Of a DNA stretch of 64,000 bases, positions 3,327-31,379 are shown in pieces. Below the pieces are notes generated by a model. It made no database searches. It saw nothing but the letters and a program-made list of their open reading frames with translations, and was not told where the DNA came from. Position 1 is the first letter of the stretch. Every line of letters begins with the position of its first letter. Location: assembly GCA_041663145.1 (NCBI GenBank), contig JBAZRG010000001.1:74467-138466 (forward strand). The letters are read 5' to 3'. The position numbers and the translations under genes were made by a program. Source of the stretch: Minisyncoccota bacterium. Its GTDB lineage: Bacteria > Patescibacteriota > Minisyncoccia > Phycocordibacterales > PALSA-1337.

Positions 3327-3786
3327 TTGACATATTATGTATATATGCTATAATAGCAAAGTACGAGGCTGTAGAGCCTCAATTTTGTTCCTTAAAACCA
3401 CATATGCTTGAGTAAAGCTTATTTCGCCTGTGGCGAGATTACATGTGTTTGAGGAAAACTGATAGGAAGAATATGAAAAATCGCAGGGTTACGTGGTATC
3501 ACTTTTGGGTCTTGTTGACAGTTGGCTTTCTGCTCATCATTGCGTCGAGACCATCGACGCCGATAATGACGCCGGAGCCGACGCCAGCTTCGCTTTCTCC
3601 CGAAGTGGGAGAAGTAAAGATGGTTGAGGAAGTTACAGTCCCTCAAGAAGGGATTGTGCCAACTTCGACAACGGAAACTCAAATTGTCAGCGTGATCTAT
3701 CACGCTGAACCGCAGATTCGGTGATTCAGTATTTGGTAAAATCAAACGCAGTAAAAACAAAAACAAACAAGAAAGGTAAAGGATAG

Positions 3787-25138: not shown

Positions 25139-25804
25139 ATGCAAAATAAAATAGATAAAAATATCAAGAAAGTCGTCTATTTTATTAGACACGGACAAAG
25201 TGAACATAATATTGCGCCAGTTTTTCAGTCTCCAGATTCACCACTAAATGAACTTGGTAGGAAGCAGGCCTTGTCAATTGCAAAGCGAGTATCCAAGATA
25301 CCATTTGAAGCTCTGATTTCTAGTCCATTTGCGAGAACAAAAGAAACTGCTGATATTATTTCCAAAGCGACAGGTAAGGAATATGAACTTTCTGATTTGT
25401 TTGTCGAGCGTGTGAAGCCGACTATTGTAAATGGTAAACCCTATGAAGACAAGGAGGCAAATGAAATCTGGAAAGAATGGGAAAAGAGTCTTTACACCCG
25501 GGGTGTGCGCGTTGCTGACGGTGAAAATTTTGATGATCTAGTAACTCGTGCTGATAAGGCTCTTAAATTTCTTCAGGATAGACCGGAAAAATCTTTAGTA
25601 GTGGTAACGCACGGCTTTTTTCTGCGAACATTGATTGCTAGAATACTTATTGGTGACTTTTTATCCGGAGAAGCATTCTTCAGATTTCAAAAGAGTGCAT
25701 CCATGGAAAATACCGGCATAACGGTCATACGCTATCAATCAAGTTTCGAACAGACAGATAATTGGCGTCTATGGATCTATAACGACCACGCTCATCTAGG
25801 ATAA
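25139..25804 (+). CDS. Histidine phosphatase family protein (phosphoglycerate-mutase-like)
   Basis: The 'VYFIRHGQSEHN' RHG motif and a second His region 'VVVTHGFF'. Confidence 0.7.
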   Translation: MQNKIDKNIKKVVYFIRHGQSEHNIAPVFQSPDSPLNELGRKQALSIAKRVSKIPFEALISSPFARTKETADIISKATGKEYELSDLFVERVKPTIVNGKPYEDKEANEIWKEWEKSLYTRGVRVADGENFDDLVTRADKALKFLQDRPEKSLVVVTHGFFLRTLIARILIGDFLSGEAFFRFQKSASMENTGITVIRYQSSFEQTDNWRLWIYNDHAHLG

Positions 25805-25977
25805 AGTATCAATAACGGCTTAAATCCCTTCGGATAACATCCCCACGACCAGCAGTCAACATAGTATTGGGAGTCCGGGGAGTTAATTTTACTTGTAATT
25901 TTCTGCGGTTATGATAGTGTATAGATACAAACGGCTTCGGCCCGACTCTACCGCAAGGTAGAGGTAACAAGAAGGAT

Positions 25978-26172
25978 TCAGGGTAGCAATGCCTTGAATT
26001 TTTTATAAATGATAACAGGACGGAGATAGTCTTCACCTCCGCCATCTTGCTCAAATCCAACATTCACTCCAAGAGTACACCACCAAATTTCTCCTTCATG
26101 GAAAAAGGGGCGCTTTTCGATCTGGTCAATTACGAATTTCTTATCATGCCACTTTTGAAAGTCTTTTTTCAT
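25978..26172 (-). pseudogene. Truncated paralogue of the MazF/PemK-like toxin at 28447..29082
   Basis: The 64-aa product 'KDFQKWHDKK...EGEIWWCTLGVNVGFEQDGGGEDYLRPVIIY' aligns to residues about 85-150 of the 211-aa copy and then terminates. It shares the upstream 'ATTTCCAAATAAAT..AATTTTGTTA' promoter-like block and the downstream hairpin block. Confidence 0.6.
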
Positions 26173-26443
26173 TGATTTATATTATACTTGTAATTACCAT
26201 GTCTTAACAATCCTGAATCAGTTGAGGTCAGAAATGCTCATTTACATTTCCAAATAAATTTAATTTTGTTAAAATACTGAAAGTTCTTGTAAATAGAAGG
26301 GGGTGAGGGGGAGGACTCCCCAATAAAGGTTGGCGCTGAGGAGGTCCGTAAATGCGCCGTAAACCCTTGTCCCCTTATGTTTATAAGATTTTGAACAGAG
26401 TCTGATCATTTGCCATTAATTGTTGATTTGAGTTAGTATTCAC

Positions 26444-26860
26444 GTGAATACCATAAATAGCACTACTATGAAATCCGTAACAATATGTTCAAGCAATAAG
26501 TTTGCAAAAGAAGCACTGGCCTTTGCTGAAGAATTAAAGAAGCTTGGCGTTACCGTCCTTGCTCCACATTATTATGCTTATAATTACGGGGATGTGGACA
26601 AGGTTGAGGGTCACAATAAGAAATTCATAGCTATGGGGCTCACGCATGATCATTTCAATAAAATCAAGAAAGGGGATGTCATATTCATCTTCAATAAGGA
26701 CGGCTATAGTGGCAACAGTGTCACACTTGAACTTGGCTATGCAACGGCTTTGGGGAAAATTATTTATGCTCTTTCTGATAAGGATCCTGAGACATGCAGA
26801 GATATATTATTTACCGGGTATGCAGATACACCGGAGAAGCTAGCTAAATTACTCAAATGA
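26444..26860 (+). CDS. Nucleoside 2-deoxyribosyltransferase-like (NDT/Rcl fold) protein
   Basis: C-terminal 'SVTLELGYATALGKIIYAL' contains the catalytic-Glu motif of the NDT family. The likely start is Met 'MKSVTIC'. Confidence 0.55.
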   Translation: MNTINSTTMKSVTICSSNKFAKEALAFAEELKKLGVTVLAPHYYAYNYGDVDKVEGHNKKFIAMGLTHDHFNKIKKGDVIFIFNKDGYSGNSVTLELGYATALGKIIYALSDKDPETCRDILFTGYADTPEKLAKLLK

Positions 26861-27306
26861 AATCAAAAGTAAAAATTTACGTACTTGGAAGTAGTCATTT
26901 CCAAGAAGAAATGGTTAAGTGTTCTGAACAATTGCGTACCTTGGGGCACGGTGGATGGATCCATCCAGATTATGAGGCCTTTGTGCGAGGTGAGAAACAA
27001 GACATTGTTAGTCGTTGGTTAAGTGGTGAACATGCCGCAGTTAAACGAGAGAATAATTATCTAAAGGAACATTACGAGCATATCTTGGAAAGTGATGCGA
27101 TCCTCATAGTAAATGCCGAAAAGAATGGCGTTAAAAACTATATCGGTGGAAATGTGCTAATTGAAATGGGACAAGCTTTTGTCAATAACAAGAAAATCTT
27201 CTTCCTCTATGGTATGCCTACAAAGTCTGCATATCTAGATGAAATTGAGTGTATGGATCCTATTTGTCTAAACGGAAAATTGGCGGATATTAAGAAGTAT
27301 TTATAG
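26857..27306 (+). CDS. Nucleoside 2-deoxyribosyltransferase-like protein, second paralogue
   Basis: 'KIYVLGSS' N-terminus and 'GGNVLIEMGQAFVNNKKIFFL' Glu motif. Overlaps the upstream gene by ATGA. Confidence 0.55.
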   Translation: MKSKVKIYVLGSSHFQEEMVKCSEQLRTLGHGGWIHPDYEAFVRGEKQDIVSRWLSGEHAAVKRENNYLKEHYEHILESDAILIVNAEKNGVKNYIGGNVLIEMGQAFVNNKKIFFLYGMPTKSAYLDEIECMDPICLNGKLADIKKYL

Positions 27307-27309
27307 ATA

Positions 27310-28050
27310 ATGGCTTAACAAAGCCAGATTTAGCATATCCTATTGGACAAAGTGTCAAAATGCTTGACAAATGCTGTGGGTATGCTATACTTGTCGTGTC
27401 AGGATAAGGTATTGGATACAATCTTGATGTGCTTAGTAGGCACTTTCTTCAGTACATTGTAAGTCAAGTCAGTTTCGAGGGCGCGAAGCATTTCTTCTTC
27501 GCCCTCGTCTTTGCGGTTTGGCGCTTCGGGGGTTCGTCCCACGTGCTACCGGCCGCATGTAAAAGGGCAGTTCTGGCTATAGCCTCTCTATCAGAAAGAG
27601 CCAGATAAGTGAAATTGGGTTGCAGGTATTTGTGAGAAACAAATACCACGCATGCGTTTCACTTAAGGAGATTCATTTCTCTTACCTCCATGCTTTGGCA
27701 CAAAAAGTGGAGGCGGACAACAGTTAGAATGTGTCTTGCTCGATACCCCTGAAAGAGAAAATCTGAAAGCAATATTTCAGGAAGGGGATTGAGGACAGAA
27801 TCATCTCGCGAGGATTCTATGTGGGGGTAGTAAGTGGCAAGTCGCCCACCTTCATGACCCGTCAAGCTTTCATGCGAACAAGGTTTGCCGCATGAGCCAC
27901 CCAGCATCATCTGGTGTTGGTTACAAAAGAATTTCCGAGTGGAAGTTCTGCAAACCATTAGTTACCTGCCCCTGAGCTGCGCCACATTTTGGCGATGGCT
28001 CGGGGGTTTTCTTTTTATACTAATCATAGTGGTGGAATGAAAGCTGTACA
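27310..28050. other. About 740 bp non-coding, GC-enriched, hairpin-rich region (candidate structured RNA or decayed foreign DNA)
   Basis: No ORF longer than 99 aa in any frame. GC is roughly 50% against about 38% in flanking genes. There are strong hairpins, for example CGAGGGCGCGAAG...CTTCGCCCTCG at 27477-27510, and a GGGGGTTTTCTTTTT terminator-like run at 28003-28017. Confidence 0.4.
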
Positions 28051-28055
28051 AAAAA

Positions 28056-28355
28056 GTGTTAAATTTAGTGTTACATAGGAACGAGATAATACGCCCAATG
28101 ATATATTACACTTACATTCTCAGATGTGCCGATGATTCTCTGTATGTTGGGTGTACGAACGATCTTGAAAAACGTCTTTTTCAACATAACAATTCTAAGC
28201 GAGGCGCGCACTACACGAAGATCAGAAGACCTGTAATATTGGTATACCACGAGAAATTCGTCACTCTGAGGAAAGCTCGAGGAAGGGAAGCAGAGCTCAA
28301 AAGTTGGAGAAGAGAACAAAAATTGGCGTTGGTGGGTACTAAGAAAAAGGCATAA
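28056..28355 (+). CDS. GIY-YIG nuclease superfamily protein (YhbQ/UPF0213-like, about 90-100 aa)
   Basis: 'YYTYILRCADDSLYVGCTNDLEKRLFQHN...GAHYT' GIY-YIG core. The start is probably the Met at about 28098. Confidence 0.65.
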   Translation: MLNLVLHRNEIIRPMIYYTYILRCADDSLYVGCTNDLEKRLFQHNNSKRGAHYTKIRRPVILVYHEKFVTLRKARGREAELKSWRREQKLALVGTKKKA

Positions 28356-28446
28356 CGAAATTGCTTTTTATTCATTAATTTGCTATTGTATGGACACAAG
28401 TGGCTTCGGCCTCACCTCCGAAAGGAGGAGAACAGGTGGAAAAATG

Positions 28447-29082
28447 TCAGAATAAATTTCTGGCATTTTTTCTTAATTCCTCAAATTTTTCTTTATCAAG
28501 AAAGCCTATTTTTTCGACATGACGTCGAGTATCGATTGATCGTATTTGAGAAAGAAGAGCTGACGCATGCTTTGTGTCGACTAGTCCAACAGGTATACGT
28601 AGATGATGTTTGTTGGGAGATGATGTTAGGGGGATAACCATGCATATTCTTGGTCCAAATTCTCGAATGATTACACATGGACGTAGAAATTCTTCACCAC
28701 TTCCGTCTTGTTCAAAACCAATATTGACTCCTAATCTACACCACCATATCTCTCTTGTTGTATATAGACGCTTCTCTTCAAGTTCTGCTTTTTTCTTTTT
28801 TGAATTCCATTTATCAAAATCTTTAGAATCAAGGTCTTTGTCAATCAAAGAAAATCTTATCCCATATTCTACTTCATATTCCAGATCTTTAATATGATTT
28901 TCAGCTTTATCTATTGCCAATCTTATAAAGTTAAAATCGCCGAGATGTTGTATATCCAAATCACTTTCATAATCTTTCTCAGAAACCCTAAATTTATCTA
29001 AGGAAATTTCTTCGATTTTTATATAATTGTTTGCACTCATAATAATTTGGGATAATTTTATTCTTAATTTTAGAAATAGCAA
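28447..29082 (-). CDS. MazF/PemK-family toxin fused to an acidic N-terminal extension of about 100 aa
   Basis: C-terminal 'REIWWCRLGVNIGFEQDGSGEEFLRPCVIIREFG...ICMVIPLTSS...HLRIPVG' matches the MazF/Kid pattern. The N-terminal 100 aa are D/E-rich. No separate antitoxin ORF is adjacent. Confidence 0.65.
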   Translation of the reverse strand: MLFLKLRIKLSQIIMSANNYIKIEEISLDKFRVSEKDYESDLDIQHLGDFNFIRLAIDKAENHIKDLEYEVEYGIRFSLIDKDLDSKDFDKWNSKKKKAELEEKRLYTTREIWWCRLGVNIGFEQDGSGEEFLRPCVIIREFGPRICMVIPLTSSPNKHHLRIPVGLVDTKHASALLSQIRSIDTRRHVEKIGFLDKEKFEELRKNARNLF

Positions 29083-29120
29083 GACAGACTTATATTTACC
29101 ATTTCCAAATAAATATAATT

Positions 29121-29438
29121 TTGTTAGAATACAAAATCATGACAAAAAACCCTTACCTCAACGCACTCATTGCTTCGCTTTACATCGTCTTTGTCGTACT
29201 CCTTATAACTTACGGTCCCATGTTTGTCAGAGAAAAACCGGATACAATTCTCGCTCCTATGGCGATGCTTAGCTTATTAGTTCTATCGGTTGCTTTTATG
29301 GGTTACACTTTCATCTTTCGACCGGCACTCATGTATATGGATGGACAAAAAAGTGAGGCGATAGGGCTTTTCACTAGGACATTACTTACGTTTTCTATTA
29401 TAACCGCTGTGATAGTTATTGTTGCCTTTTCCGTCTAG
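29121..29438 (+). CDS. Small membrane protein (3 predicted TM helices)
   Basis: Hydrophobic segments 'LIASLYIVFVVLLITY', 'LAPMAMLSLLVLSVAFMGY' and 'LTFSIITAVIVIVAF'. Confidence 0.45.
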   Translation: MLEYKIMTKNPYLNALIASLYIVFVVLLITYGPMFVREKPDTILAPMAMLSLLVLSVAFMGYTFIFRPALMYMDGQKSEAIGLFTRTLLTFSIITAVIVIVAFSV

Positions 29439-30355
29439 TCGAATATATTCACGAGATACTCATCAATCTTGCGTTGATCGAGATCGTAAAAAGTCTTATC
29501 TTGATTTCGAATGTCGGTTGCTAGTTTGACACCGACGAATCGCCAATGCCACGGTTCGTAGACATAGTAGCCGTTGTTTTTTGGATATGACAGGACGAAA
29601 CCATACTTATAGGCATTCCTTTGCATCCATTCGAAAGCCGGAGTGCTTTCGAAGCCGTCAATATTACCACCCAGACCGGAAGTGATCATGTCTAGAGTTG
29701 TGCCGAGTTGATGTTCGGAGTAACCCTGATCGGCTGAAAATGAATTGGCGGTGCCAGCTCCATAGGTTAGGGAGTAATTGCCTTTTAGAGCTTTTTGCTC
29801 GGCGAATGACCTATAAGCGGAAGAAACATAGAGATTGATTTTGGAAGAAGAGGCGTTCTTTAGCATGTCTATCAAATGAGGCAGAATATCGGAGTGGATG
29901 AGCATCTGCTTGCTTTCACTGTATTGATAGGTGAGCGGTATCTCCGAGAGGCGTGCTGGCACGTAATTTTCATTTAGGAAATAAGCTTTGGAATATTTTT
30001 TAAGAAGTTCCGGATCAGTTTGAGCTAGCTTCTGAAGATTGGTGAGTGTGCCTGATAGTGTGCCATATTGATTTTGGACACCGCCGAGCTGTTCCGTGAT
30101 AGCACCGACTTTTTTCTGTTCTATCGATAAGGCATTGAAAAGTGAATTGTTCGTGTCTTTTATCGAAGCTTGTAAAACTTCAGTCGTAGATGATAAAGCT
30201 GTGGAAAGAGTCAAAATATTTGCATTCAAATCCGAAACTTTGAGAGAAAGCGAATTCATCCGAAAATGAGAATATATTAGTGTAAAGACTAGGACTATAG
30301 AGACAGAAGCGAATAAGAAAGTATTTGATTTTGGTGTGAAATTTAATGGTGTCAT
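29435..30355 (-). CDS. D-alanyl-D-alanine carboxypeptidase, peptidase M15 (VanY-like)
   Basis: 'SAYRS...EQ', 'SEHQLGTTLD' and 'EPWHWR' zinc-ligand motifs. N-terminal TM. Confidence 0.7.
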   Translation of the reverse strand: MTPLNFTPKSNTFLFASVSIVLVFTLIYSHFRMNSLSLKVSDLNANILTLSTALSSTTEVLQASIKDTNNSLFNALSIEQKKVGAITEQLGGVQNQYGTLSGTLTNLQKLAQTDPELLKKYSKAYFLNENYVPARLSEIPLTYQYSESKQMLIHSDILPHLIDMLKNASSSKINLYVSSAYRSFAEQKALKGNYSLTYGAGTANSFSADQGYSEHQLGTTLDMITSGLGGNIDGFESTPAFEWMQRNAYKYGFVLSYPKNNGYYVYEPWHWRFVGVKLATDIRNQDKTFYDLDQRKIDEYLVNIFD

Positions 30356-30431: not shown

Positions 30432-30935
30432 CTATATAGTGCTTGCGAAAGTTCCGACAATGAGACCGAGAATGATAGCGATGCCACCAATCACAACGAC
30501 GCGGATTCCATTCAATAAAAGATTTCCTTTGGAGATCTTTGCTCCGACCAGACCGAGAACAAAAAGGGCGATTGTCGAGAATAGTATGGAATAGTATAGA
30601 GCTTGGCCAACTGGCAAAAATAGATATGAAGAAAGAGGAATGAACCCGGAGATAAAATACGAAATGAACATGACTAATCCCGAAAAGATGTTTTTGAGAG
30701 TCACTTTTTCTTTACCGGTCGTAAATTCGTCCGCTGAAGATTCGGCGATAAATGAACCGGCACCCATTGAGAATGCTTCAACGAAGATAAGGACTATGCC
30801 AGTAAGGAAGATGTCCTCTTTTGACATTCCAGCGACGGCAATTCCAGACAAGAGACCGACTGTCGATACCAGACTGTCTTCTACGCCGAAAATGAAATTC
30901 CTAAAATACGAAACCGGATATTTGTGTTTGAACAT
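30432..30935 (-). CDS. VIT1/CCC1-family membrane protein
   Basis: 'FGVEDSLVSTVGLLSGIAVAG' VIT signature and multiple TM helices. Confidence 0.6.
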   Translation of the reverse strand: MFKHKYPVSYFRNFIFGVEDSLVSTVGLLSGIAVAGMSKEDIFLTGIVLIFVEAFSMGAGSFIAESSADEFTTGKEKVTLKNIFSGLVMFISYFISGFIPLSSYLFLPVGQALYYSILFSTIALFVLGLVGAKISKGNLLLNGIRVVVIGGIAIILGLIVGTFASTI

Positions 30936-30983
30936 GTCTATAGTTTAACACACTCCATAACGATATCGATTTAGGGTGTCTAT

Positions 30984-31379
30984 CTATTCAGTTGTTTTTC
31001 CTTCGAATTTGTCTGTTGTATCAGCTTCACCCAGAACTTTGGTCTTATGAACAACTCCGTCACGATGATGGGGTGGCATGTAGAGAGTATAGAGCTTCAT
31101 TGGCTCGGATCCAGTATTTACAATATTATGCTTTGTTCCGAGTGGCACGATAACGACACTACCATTTTCAAGAGGGTGAGAAATGCCATTTACGATTGCC
31201 TTGCCAGTACCTTTTTCGATTCGAAAGAACTGATCGACAGTGTGAGTCTCCTCGCCGATGTCTTCGTTTGGGAGAAGAGACATCAAAACAAGCTGACTAT
31301 TCTTCGCAGTATAAAGAACCTTTCTGAAGTTATCATTTTCTAGAGTGAGTTTTTCTATATTAGTGGTATATCCTTTCAT
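30984..31379 (-). CDS. Cupin-domain protein
   Basis: Two cupin motifs: 'HTVDQFFRIEKGTGKAIVNG' and 'PLGTKHNIVNTGSEP'. Confidence 0.6.
   Translation of the reverse strand: MKGYTTNIEKLTLENDNFRKVLYTAKNSQLVLMSLLPNEDIGEETHTVDQFFRIEKGTGKAIVNGISHPLENGSVVIVPLGTKHNIVNTGSEPMKLYTLYMPPHHRDGVVHKTKVLGEADTTDKFEGKTTE

Follow-up and report, generated by a model that had tools for sequence, protein, structure and literature searches.

A small RNA gene paired with a solitary MazF-family toxin gene in Patescibacteria, a probable RNA antitoxin

What restrains a MazF-family toxin that has no protein antitoxin beside it? The question is raised by a 64,000-nt stretch of DNA from a Minisyncoccota bacterium (GenBank assembly GCA_041663145.1, contig JBAZRG010000001.1, positions 74,467 to 138,466, forward strand), here called the window, in which a MazF/PemK-family toxin gene on the minus strand has a conserved hairpin element at its 3' end. 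An earlier note, made from this sequence alone, had proposed the element, which recurs at a second and damaged toxin copy, as the toxin's RNA partner, either an antitoxin or a stabiliser of the 3' untranslated region (UTR). We found that each element is, by its sequence, a complete small-RNA (sRNA) gene of ~77 nt with a transcript predicted from its own promoter, and that such a gene stands at the 3' end of every assessable relative of the toxin gene. The RNA is probably the antitoxin of the toxin that it faces.

Two sRNA genes facing toxin genes in the window

The hairpin GGCTTCGGCC is present exactly twice in the 64 kb, on the + strand in both cases and near both toxin copies, as the earlier note had observed (copy A at the intact toxin gene and copy B at the damaged one; Table 1). 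The second hairpin, which in copy B reads CUCUACC-GCAA-GGUAGAG, does differ between the copies by two compensatory pairs: counted from the loop, pair 3 is U-A in copy A and A-U in copy B, and pair 4 is C-G and U-A respectively. The extent first given for the element (28386-28450) holds for the two-hairpin part and not for the limits of the unit, which runs from a promoter beginning at 28361 through a third hairpin and a T-tract ending at 28471. This third hairpin lies downstream in both copies, with six consecutive T after it; its sequence in copy A is UGUCAGAA-UAAAU-UUCUGGCA (28445-28465), with the stop codon and final codons of the toxin gene inside it, and the sRNA ends 25 nt within the toxin open reading frame (ORF).

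Only these two sites of the window were matched by a covariance model (R1) trained on 64 sRNA sequences from toxin loci: copy A at 28395-28471 (82.7 bits, E 3.4e-14) and copy B (40.7 bits, E 4.5e-6), the latter being a member of a subclass (GGCCCGACUCU...) that is found in related loci L004 and L041 too. On the + strand both copies fold into three clean hairpins (copy A, -29 kcal/mol, z -4.46; copy B, -31.8 kcal/mol, z -5.47), while the minus strand folds less well (z -3.20 and -1.10 respectively). Against Rfam 15 the window gave only tRNAs at gathering thresholds, and 25500-29500 at E<=10 gave one chance match to mir-84 on the opposite strand and nothing else.

The product of the intact toxin gene is 100% identical to database protein P0001, an NCBI entry from Candidatus Paceibacterota (Patescibacteria/CPR), and matches PF02452 (PemK/MazF) over residues 96-195 (E 2e-13). 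Its stop codon lies at 28447-28449 of the minus strand, as previously placed; the TTG start proposed at 29082 did not hold up, ATG 29040 (197 aa) being most likely the start. The family profile matches Bacillus subtilis MazF/EndoA (4mdx) with E 3.7e-7, and an AlphaFold2 model (pLDDT 84) has the MazF fold, with the MazF proteins of Staphylococcus aureus, Mycobacterium tuberculosis and B. subtilis as its top Foldseek matches. R120-P121 (the RP motif) is invariant in the family and T139 (PLT(T/S)S) nearly invariant; because the catalytic Arg and Thr are thus retained, in alignment with R25 and T48 of the B. subtilis enzyme, the toxin looks active, as far as its sequence tells.

All family members (127-197 aa) carry an extra N-terminal helix, KDFDxWNxxKK. 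On the other hand, the extra N-terminal domain that precedes it in the window protein is absent from most members and is not MazE-like; this "fused" domain is immaterial to the pairing with the RNA, because 127-aa toxins without it carry the same RNA. Database records label these proteins "type II toxin-antitoxin system PemK/MazF family toxin". The second gene, previously called a truncated paralogue, is truncated indeed, by an internal deletion; it belongs to a different toxin subfamily (P0038-like) and keeps its true C-terminus.

Table 1. Coordinates of the sRNA genes, the toxin genes and associated elements in the window
Feature	Position	Strand	Remarks
-35 element TTGCTT, copy A	28361..28366	+	At -34..-29 of the family promoter profile (TTGAC[A/T])
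-10 element TATTGT, copy A	28384..28389	+	17 nt past the -35; at -11..-6 of the family profile; predicted start A28396
sRNA copy A, predicted 76-nt transcript	28396..28471	+	5' ACAAGU tail, two hairpins, purine-rich linker, terminator
Hairpin 1, copy A, GGC-UUCG-GCC	28402..28411	+	From sequence and fold
Hairpin 2, copy A, CCUCC-GAAA-GGAGG (GNRA loop)	28415..28428	+	From fold
Third hairpin and U-tract, copy A, predicted intrinsic terminator	28439..28471	+	Shared in reverse with the toxin gene; covers the toxin's last 7 codons and stop
MazF/PemK-family toxin gene, 197 aa	28447..29040	-	N-terminal beta-beta-beta-alpha-beta domain, aa 1-70; KDFDxWNxxKK helix, aa 73-86; MazF fold, aa 96-196
Toxin promoter-like site TTGCTA-16-TAAAAT	29055..29082	-	14 nt before the ATG; no Shine-Dalgarno
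-10-like element TAGTGT, copy B	25915..25920	+	At the family position; scan alternative TTTACT-16-TATGAT at 25888-25915
sRNA copy B, 78 nt	25927..26004	+	Hairpin 1 25933-25942, hairpin 2 25946-25963, terminator 25971-26004
Second MazF-family gene remnant, 64 aa	25978..26172	-	Catalytic core lost by internal deletion; C-terminus KFKALLP (then stop) and shared terminator retained; from translation compared with P0038
33-nt element, promoter-like (TTTCCA-17-TAGAAT)	29100..29132	+	94% identical to 26245-26277; part of a duplicated cassette

Linkage, structure and strand across the RNA family

The toxin and its RNA were followed in two samples. In the toxin-first sample, a scan of one genome per GTDB species gave at least 503 confirmed relatives of the toxin, from which the best 80 loci (one per species) were kept; these lie in metagenome-assembled genomes (MAGs) labelled Patescibacteria-group or unclassified-bacterium, including Parcubacteria candidate phyla (e.g., Kaiserbacteria, Lloydbacteria, Taylorbacteria and Yanofskybacteria), with many labelled "uncultured Candidatus Saccharibacteria". 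Apart from L052 (contig end) and L070 (N-masked), 78 of the 80 were assessable. In the RNA-first sample, metagenome contigs were scanned for exact matches to the pattern of the RNA's 5' module alone (its 5' tail, first two hairpins and purine-rich linker), which gave 123 occurrences on 120 contigs, of which 122 were assessable and one lay too near a contig end.

At all 78 assessable toxin loci (78/78) the covariance model found the RNA at the 3' end of the toxin gene; none of these relatives lacked the element. Conversely, 108 of the 122 metagenome RNAs, each with an intact 5' module as the scan demands, had a convergent MazF-family ORF ending within the RNA, and 14 had none. Among these 14: i) the toxins at L081, L085, L092, L100, L152 and L190 were frameshifted or truncated; ii) at L091 and L153 a second promoter came after the 5' module, with a variant RNA that faced a MazF-like ORF farther away; iii) at L181 the 5' module was followed by a second promoter and no toxin was recognised; iv) at L090, L148, L149, L183 and L185 there was no recognisable toxin remnant, and some of these had a different terminator. 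No intact toxin was thus found without the RNA, yet the RNA stands beside decayed toxins (e.g., copy B), as would be expected if it were an antidote.

The 5' module of L091, L153 and L181 has no terminator before the second promoter, which is of consensus type; at the first two of these loci the RNA of that promoter consists of a UUCG hairpin, another hairpin and a U-tract, and the MazF-like ORF is 140 or 178 aa long; the pairing of RNA and toxin may extend to further MazF subfamilies. Head-to-tail arrays of toxin and sRNA were also observed, with three toxins in L014 (22-402, 608-997 and 1212-1565) and two in L038 (3001-3381 and 3391-3918), and an own RNA was detected for two of the three toxins of L014 and for both of L038. 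The extra covariance-model matches within loci corresponded to additional tandem toxin genes or their remnants.

No protein took the place of the RNA as a constant partner. Among ORF families of at least 60 aa within 2 kb none was common to more than 9 of the 80 loci, in agreement with the original claim that no protein antitoxin is adjacent; ORFs of 30-130 aa within ~500 nt formed recurrent "families" only as frames across the sRNA itself; and PADLOC defence-system models gave no match. Moreover, each frame of the RNA was open in only 35-40% of the RNAs, and their lengths (73-88 nt) were without 3-periodicity. A protein or peptide antitoxin was rejected, none being conserved in these flanks or in the frames of the RNA. 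A search of viral contigs with the RNA pattern returned 0 matches, and a phage origin of the RNA was rejected on this result.

In nearly all loci the family has one layout on the strand opposite the toxin: TTGACA/T, 16-17 nt, TATACT, ~7-8 nt, (U)ACA(A/G)NU, G[G/C]C-UUCG-G[G/C]C, a C-rich/G-rich hairpin (mostly with a GNRA loop), AGAA with a purine-rich linker, and AAAAGCCGUCAGAG...CUCUGACGGCUUUU. The covariance-model analysis of homologous loci, which the earlier note had suggested as a check, bore out the structure: in a model-based alignment of 83 RNAs, 94.7% of the cells were standard pairs, compared with 38-58% when the 3' partners were slid by 1-3 columns, and double-sided changes occurred in 22 of the 23 pairs (238 cells), with 0 of 500 shuffles matching the observed values. 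Since this alignment was fitted to the model, two independent checks were made: a plain MAFFT alignment already recovered hairpin 1 and the terminator with covariation, and single-sequence folding gave exactly three hairpins in 74 of the 83 sequences (loop 1 being UUCG in 66 and loop 2 being GCAA, GAAA or GUAA in 60).

In hairpin 1 the closing pair was C-G in 80 of 80 and the middle pair either G-C (50) or C-G (28). Hairpin 2 took ~30 distinct stems of 3-8 bp across the family, its covariation being mostly a compensated exchange of C-G to U-A, and all 14 model pairs of the terminator covaried. Pair C19-G45, which we had added to the model ourselves, was unsupported (unpaired in 30 sequences).

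Two side observations concern the hairpins. In nearly all sequences hairpin 2 is polarised, with a pyrimidine 5' strand and a purine 3' strand; in copy A (28412-28431) the 5' strand, UCACCUCC, resembles the 16S rRNA 3' end, and the opposite strand is GGAGGAG. Furthermore, the two-hairpin module is present in tandem within one sRNA in L057 (~416-560, minus) and L066 (~3357-3490, minus), the first module having different tetraloops (UACG or UUCG, and GAAA); L065 has that variant module only.

The strand of the RNA followed from its promoter. At a fixed distance from the RNA stands a family consensus of -35 TTGAC[A/T], TG and -10 TAtAcT: the -10 hexamer begins with T in 73 and A in 72 of the 83 sequences and ends with T in 76 of 83, TTGAC lies 17 nt upstream, and the seventh base past the hexamer is the A of an ACA triplet (A 81/83, C 70/83, A 80/83). 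The mean match to the sigma-70 consensus over 12 positions was 9.6 for the sRNA promoters, 7.8 for the toxin promoters and 7.2 for random windows. Read on the sRNA strand, the terminator has many G-U pairs (for instance, 29 sequences have U-G at one pair and 19 have G-U at another), and these favour this strand because on the toxin strand they would become A-C mismatches. Thus the promoter on the plus strand, the tetraloops, the G-U pairs and the folding z-scores all agree with the original claim of a plus-strand RNA that is antisense to, and convergent with, the toxin gene.

The idea that the element stabilises the toxin's 3' UTR was rejected, because the toxin transcript reaches the terminator before the two hairpins; the promoter, tetraloops and G-U pairs belong to the other strand. 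The genes upstream of the sRNA promoter vary between loci, and this variation, the fixed-distance promoter and the strand-specific pairs therefore exclude a toxin 3' UTR, a terminator of the upstream gene and a dispersed repeat. The sRNA overlapped the toxin coding sequence (CDS) by 25 nt in 65 of 68 loci, and the stop codon is therefore always within the shared hairpin.

Upstream of the promoter, a motif like a DnaA box (TTATCCACA, at most 1 mismatch) preceded 19 of the 83 sRNA promoters (L012, L028, L011, L062 and 15 more sRNA copies), in the same orientation in 18 of the 19. It lay 48-52 nt (in a few cases as much as 61 nt) ahead of the sRNA start, leaving ~7 nt to the -35, and was present in 1.8% of random 55-nt windows drawn from these loci. 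The window copies have no such site upstream, and copy A has TTATTCATT between its -35 and -10.

Further elements were noted in the window. The 33-nt element of Table 1 lies upstream of both toxin copies (29100-29132 and 26245-26277) and nowhere else in the window; it is better conserved (94%) than the coding sequence (78%) and is missing in the closest relative, L001, and in copy A its promoter faces a divergent membrane-protein gene at 29140. In the intergenic stretch 27306-27660 the region has its best promoter match (TTGACA-16-TATACT with TG, 27364-27391), and G+C-rich hairpins come after it; the stretch partly resembles 26278-26445, downstream of a conserved TTTCCA-17-TAAAAT promoter (e.g., TTGGCGCTTCGGGGGTTCGT is similar to TTGGCGCTGAGGAGGTCCGT). 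Neither stretch had an Rfam match, and both may be further small RNAs.

How the RNA may act

The anatomy of the gene, its strand and structure, its obligate linkage to the toxin and the absence of a conserved protein partner are what the sequences show, and the original proposal of an RNA partner was upheld by the 78/78 linkage, the strong covariation, the promoter and the lack of a flanking ORF family. In what we consider the best full explanation, an sRNA of ~77 nt would be transcribed from its own strong sigma-70-type promoter toward the 3' end of a solitary MazF endoribonuclease gene, the two genes would have in common one bidirectional terminator containing the toxin's last seven codons and stop, and the RNA would be the antitoxin of a two-gene module that has no protein antitoxin. 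Its 5' module, made up of a single-stranded pppACA(A/G)NU tail, a C(UUCG)G hairpin, a pyrimidine/purine-polarised GNRA hairpin and a purine-rich linker, would bind the toxin as a pseudo-substrate and block its RNA groove in the manner of type III systems; the subfamily-specific basic helix KDFDxWNxxKK may aid this RNA binding. The antisense overlap at the terminator would keep the two genes physically inseparable and may also destabilise the toxin mRNA. Taken whole, with an independent sRNA gene acting as antitoxin through pseudo-substrate binding, this explanation has about an even chance of being right, and direct protein binding as the main mode of action falls somewhat short of that.

Direct binding is favoured because MazF by nature binds single-stranded RNA, because ToxI RNA inhibits ToxN, a toxin of Kid/MazF-like fold (reviewed in PMC5086642), and because this subfamily has the basic helix. 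It is favoured over base pairing because of four further observations: there is no excess complementarity of the 5' module to the toxin mRNA, there is no Shine-Dalgarno (SD) sequence to mask, the module is in tandem in L057 and L066, and the helix is shared with toxins of Campylobacterota that likewise face convergent sRNAs. The complementarity of the 5' module was not in excess for the whole toxin mRNA (mean z 0.10) or for its first 60 nt (mean z -0.28; n=71), and trans pairing of the module with the mRNA was rejected, its duplex energies being no better than those of shuffled RNA.

Masking of an SD by the C-rich strand of hairpin 2 was also rejected. Upstream of the toxin genes the sequences are unrelated between loci and typically have a -10-like box 3-14 nt before the ATG and no SD; in the window an SD-like motif was found in only 4 of 56 long ORFs. 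An SD-related role of hairpin 2 seems unlikely because the genome hardly uses SD sequences. In many genes, the toxin genes among them, a TAnnnT box precedes the ATG by a few bases, which suggests from the sequence that translation in this organism is mostly leaderless or SD-independent.

Several points weigh against pseudo-substrate binding by an antitoxin RNA: i) the overlap keeps one geometry throughout, in which it covers 25 nt of CDS and the hairpin contains the stop codon, arguing that antisense pairing matters; ii) CjrA, the RNA antitoxin of Campylobacter plasmid pVir, is classed as type I in the literature (PMC10470494 and PMC7826846), and it may be the Campylobacter counterpart of this RNA; iii) the UUCG and GNRA hairpins may be kept for stability alone and not as a protein-binding surface; iv) the conserved ACA could reflect a preference in transcription initiation; v) the k-mers gave no hint of ACA specificity of the toxin, depletion of ACA or UACA in the toxin ORFs not being seen in a test that conserved codons confound; and vi) since the pattern scan detects only RNAs with an intact 5' module, its evidence on orphan RNAs is biased accordingly.

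The foremost alternative, unlikely on balance and still a serious one, is a type I-like antisense antitoxin whose sole action is to pair with the 3' end of the toxin mRNA, where the terminator region makes the two RNAs complementary. A loop-loop kissing contact would lead to a duplex and to cleavage by RNase III, the mRNA would lose its 3' hairpin and stop codon, and the resulting non-stop message would yield no toxin; the 5' hairpins would merely stabilise the RNA, UUCG and GNRA hairpins being classic stabilisers. The 25-nt CDS overlap with the stop codon in the shared hairpin (65/68 loci and the window) suits this mechanism, as do the convergent antitoxin RNAs of txpA/RatA, bsrG/SR4 and par, which overlap at the 3' end and in which a bidirectional terminator makes the first contact; the type I class given to the pVir RNA antitoxin in PMC10470494 points the same way. 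However, the complementarity is only ~35 nt and is tied up in a 14-bp hairpin of either RNA; the 45-nt 5' module, unpaired bases included, is conserved across toxins that are 43-50% identical, yet is not complementary to the mRNA; a tandem duplication of this non-overlapping module (L057 and L066) gives pairing no gain; and the toxin, being an enzyme of 127-197 aa, differs from the small membrane peptides. Direct binding is held only slightly above this alternative, and computation from sequence does not decide between a type I-like antisense mode and a type III-like ToxI mode.

It is improbable that the sRNA is linked to the toxin and is no antitoxin, serving instead as a decoy or sensor of toxin activity, as an RNase cofactor or as a trans-acting regulator riding the cassette, with the toxin restrained by an unlinked protein, by its own N-terminal regions or by low expression. 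Neutralisation by the RNA is what we infer; with its weak promoters the toxin might be tolerable at low expression alone; the polarity of hairpin 2 is not what one expects of a purely structural element, its 5' pyrimidine strand in copy A (UCACCUCC) resembling the 16S rRNA 3' end; and the DnaA-box-like site before 19 of 83 sRNA promoters hints at a regulatory input. Against this stand the asymmetric loss, with no intact toxin lacking the RNA in 78 loci and with RNAs persisting by decayed toxins, the absence of any other conserved neighbour, and an N-terminal domain that most members lack and that is not MazE-like. Finally, there is hardly any chance that no separate RNA gene exists and that the element is a bidirectional terminator or 3' UTR of the toxin or of the upstream + strand gene (a GIY-YIG gene at copy A), a dispersed repeat or a small protein gene: the third hairpin is terminator-like on both strands and copy A starts 6 nt past the GIY-YIG stop codon, but the near-consensus promoter keeps its distance though the upstream genes all differ, on the toxin strand the hairpins lie past the terminator and lose their tetraloops while G-U pairs become A-C mismatches, the window has only two copies, both at toxin 3' ends, and no reading frame is conserved.

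Relation to known systems and significance

The closest pair in architecture is on a Campylobacter plasmid. When plasmids were searched by tblastn, members of this toxin subfamily came up in Campylobacterota at 28-36% identity, including one on pVir of C. jejuni 81-176, whose CJJ81176_pVir0047 (WP_011117588.1) aligned by hhalign with probability 99% (E 2.4e-18, 122 columns, FDEWNEVKK helix included). Like the Patescibacteria loci, it has no adjacent protein antitoxin in the annotation. Facing it is CJpv3, a 77-nt RNA detected by Northern blot on the pVir minus strand from 31119 to 31043 (Dugar et al. 2013, PMC3656092, Table S12). CJpv3 is convergent to the toxin CDS (30634-31038, +) and ends 5 nt past its stop; it matches the window copies (76 and 78 nt) in size, starts 6 nt past an extended -10 box (TGnTATAAT) and, like the window RNA, folds as two hairpins (one with a GAAA loop) and a terminator. 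It differs in that it abuts the CDS without overlap and has neither the 5' ACA nor the UUCG hairpin, and the pVir pair is plasmid-borne in Campylobacterota whereas ours are on contigs of Patescibacteria-group MAGs. Model R1, run with filters off, gave the CJpv3 region only 6 bits (E 1.2). Thus the Patescibacteria and pVir pairs have an architecture in common, without detectable homology of the RNAs.

Unannotated convergent sRNA-like units, with an extended -10, hairpin(s) and a terminator, were also observed downstream of MazF-like genes on plasmids of Helicobacter and Nitratiruptor (L203, L204 and L202). The Helicobacter suis and Helicobacter sp. units have the CJpv3 layout with compensating stem differences, and the Nitratiruptor unit is shorter, with one hairpin before the terminator; conserved stretches in these units are CCAGAGCUU and UUGCCCUGUCCUAGUUGCAGGG.

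CjrA is described as the antisense sRNA antitoxin of a pVir type I system (Shen et al. 2016, Mol Microbiol 101:909, as cited in PMC10470494 and PMC7826846). CJpv3 and pVir0047 may be this published CjrA/CjpT pair; the literature and database names searched gave no link of CjrA/CjpT to pVir0047, and a look at CJpv2 on pVir as an alternative candidate for CjrA gave no result. The literature searched held nothing on a MazF with a convergent sRNA in Patescibacteria.

The module has traits of three classes of toxin-antitoxin system. With type III systems (ToxIN, CptIN and TenpIN) it has in common an endoribonuclease toxin, the lack of a protein antitoxin and a small structured RNA adjoining the toxin gene; the RNA's single-stranded tails could occupy the RNase groove, and the module is occasionally in tandem (L057 and L066). 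Type III antitoxins, however, are direct-repeat arrays encoded upstream of the toxin gene on its own strand, with a terminator in between, and are processed by the toxin, whereas the window RNA is a single unit, downstream, convergent and with its own promoter, and its toxin is a PF02452 MazF and not ToxN/AbiQ.

As in type I systems, the RNA is antisense to the toxin transcript and is predicted to overlap it (25 nt in 65/68 loci). In the txpA/RatA and bsrG/SR4 pairs of B. subtilis and in RNA I/RNA II of Enterococcus faecalis par, a convergent antitoxin RNA overlaps the 3' end of the toxin mRNA, the two par RNAs having a common bidirectional terminator, and SymE/SymR provides an RNase-like toxin under antisense control. 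On the other hand, the toxins of txpA, bsrG and par are membrane peptides of less than 60 aa, with overlaps of 75-120 nt or extra complementary repeats, whereas here complementarity is confined to the terminator of ~35 nt and the toxin, a MazF-fold RNase that is soluble and 127-197 aa long, is not a small hydrophobic peptide. With type II MazEF/PemIK the module has the PF02452 toxin, its MazF fold and the catalytic Arg and Thr in common; it differs by the absence of a MazE/PemI gene up- or downstream and by the extra N-terminal helix, with the extra domain in the 197-aa forms.

If direct binding held, a bolder proposal could be made, which we regard as doubtful: this would be the first case of a bona fide MazF inhibited directly by an RNA, namely by a single-unit convergent type III-like antitoxin whose 5'-triphosphate ACA tail and two tetraloop hairpins plug the groove, recruited together with an RNA-binding helix, with an architecture common to Patescibacteria chromosomes and Campylobacterota plasmids and a supply that is DnaA-coupled in part of the family.

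We therefore describe a widespread sRNA class that has no Rfam family and was not found described in the literature searched. Its pairing with a solitary MazF subfamily is obligate, and its most likely role is that of an RNA antitoxin; the pair would belong among the toxin-antitoxin modules with RNA antitoxins. MazF is the textbook type II toxin, and here is a whole subfamily without MazE (at least 503 loci), each assessable locus of which has a dedicated sRNA. The same toxin fold would thus be able to switch between protein and (candidate) RNA antidotes, in a pair as compact as a ~127-aa RNase and a ~77-nt RNA. The finding links elements of uncultured lineages to an experimentally detected sRNA on a Campylobacter virulence plasmid, and it gives the Patescibacteria, with their tiny genomes and almost no described regulatory RNAs, an abundant and easily recognised sRNA class.

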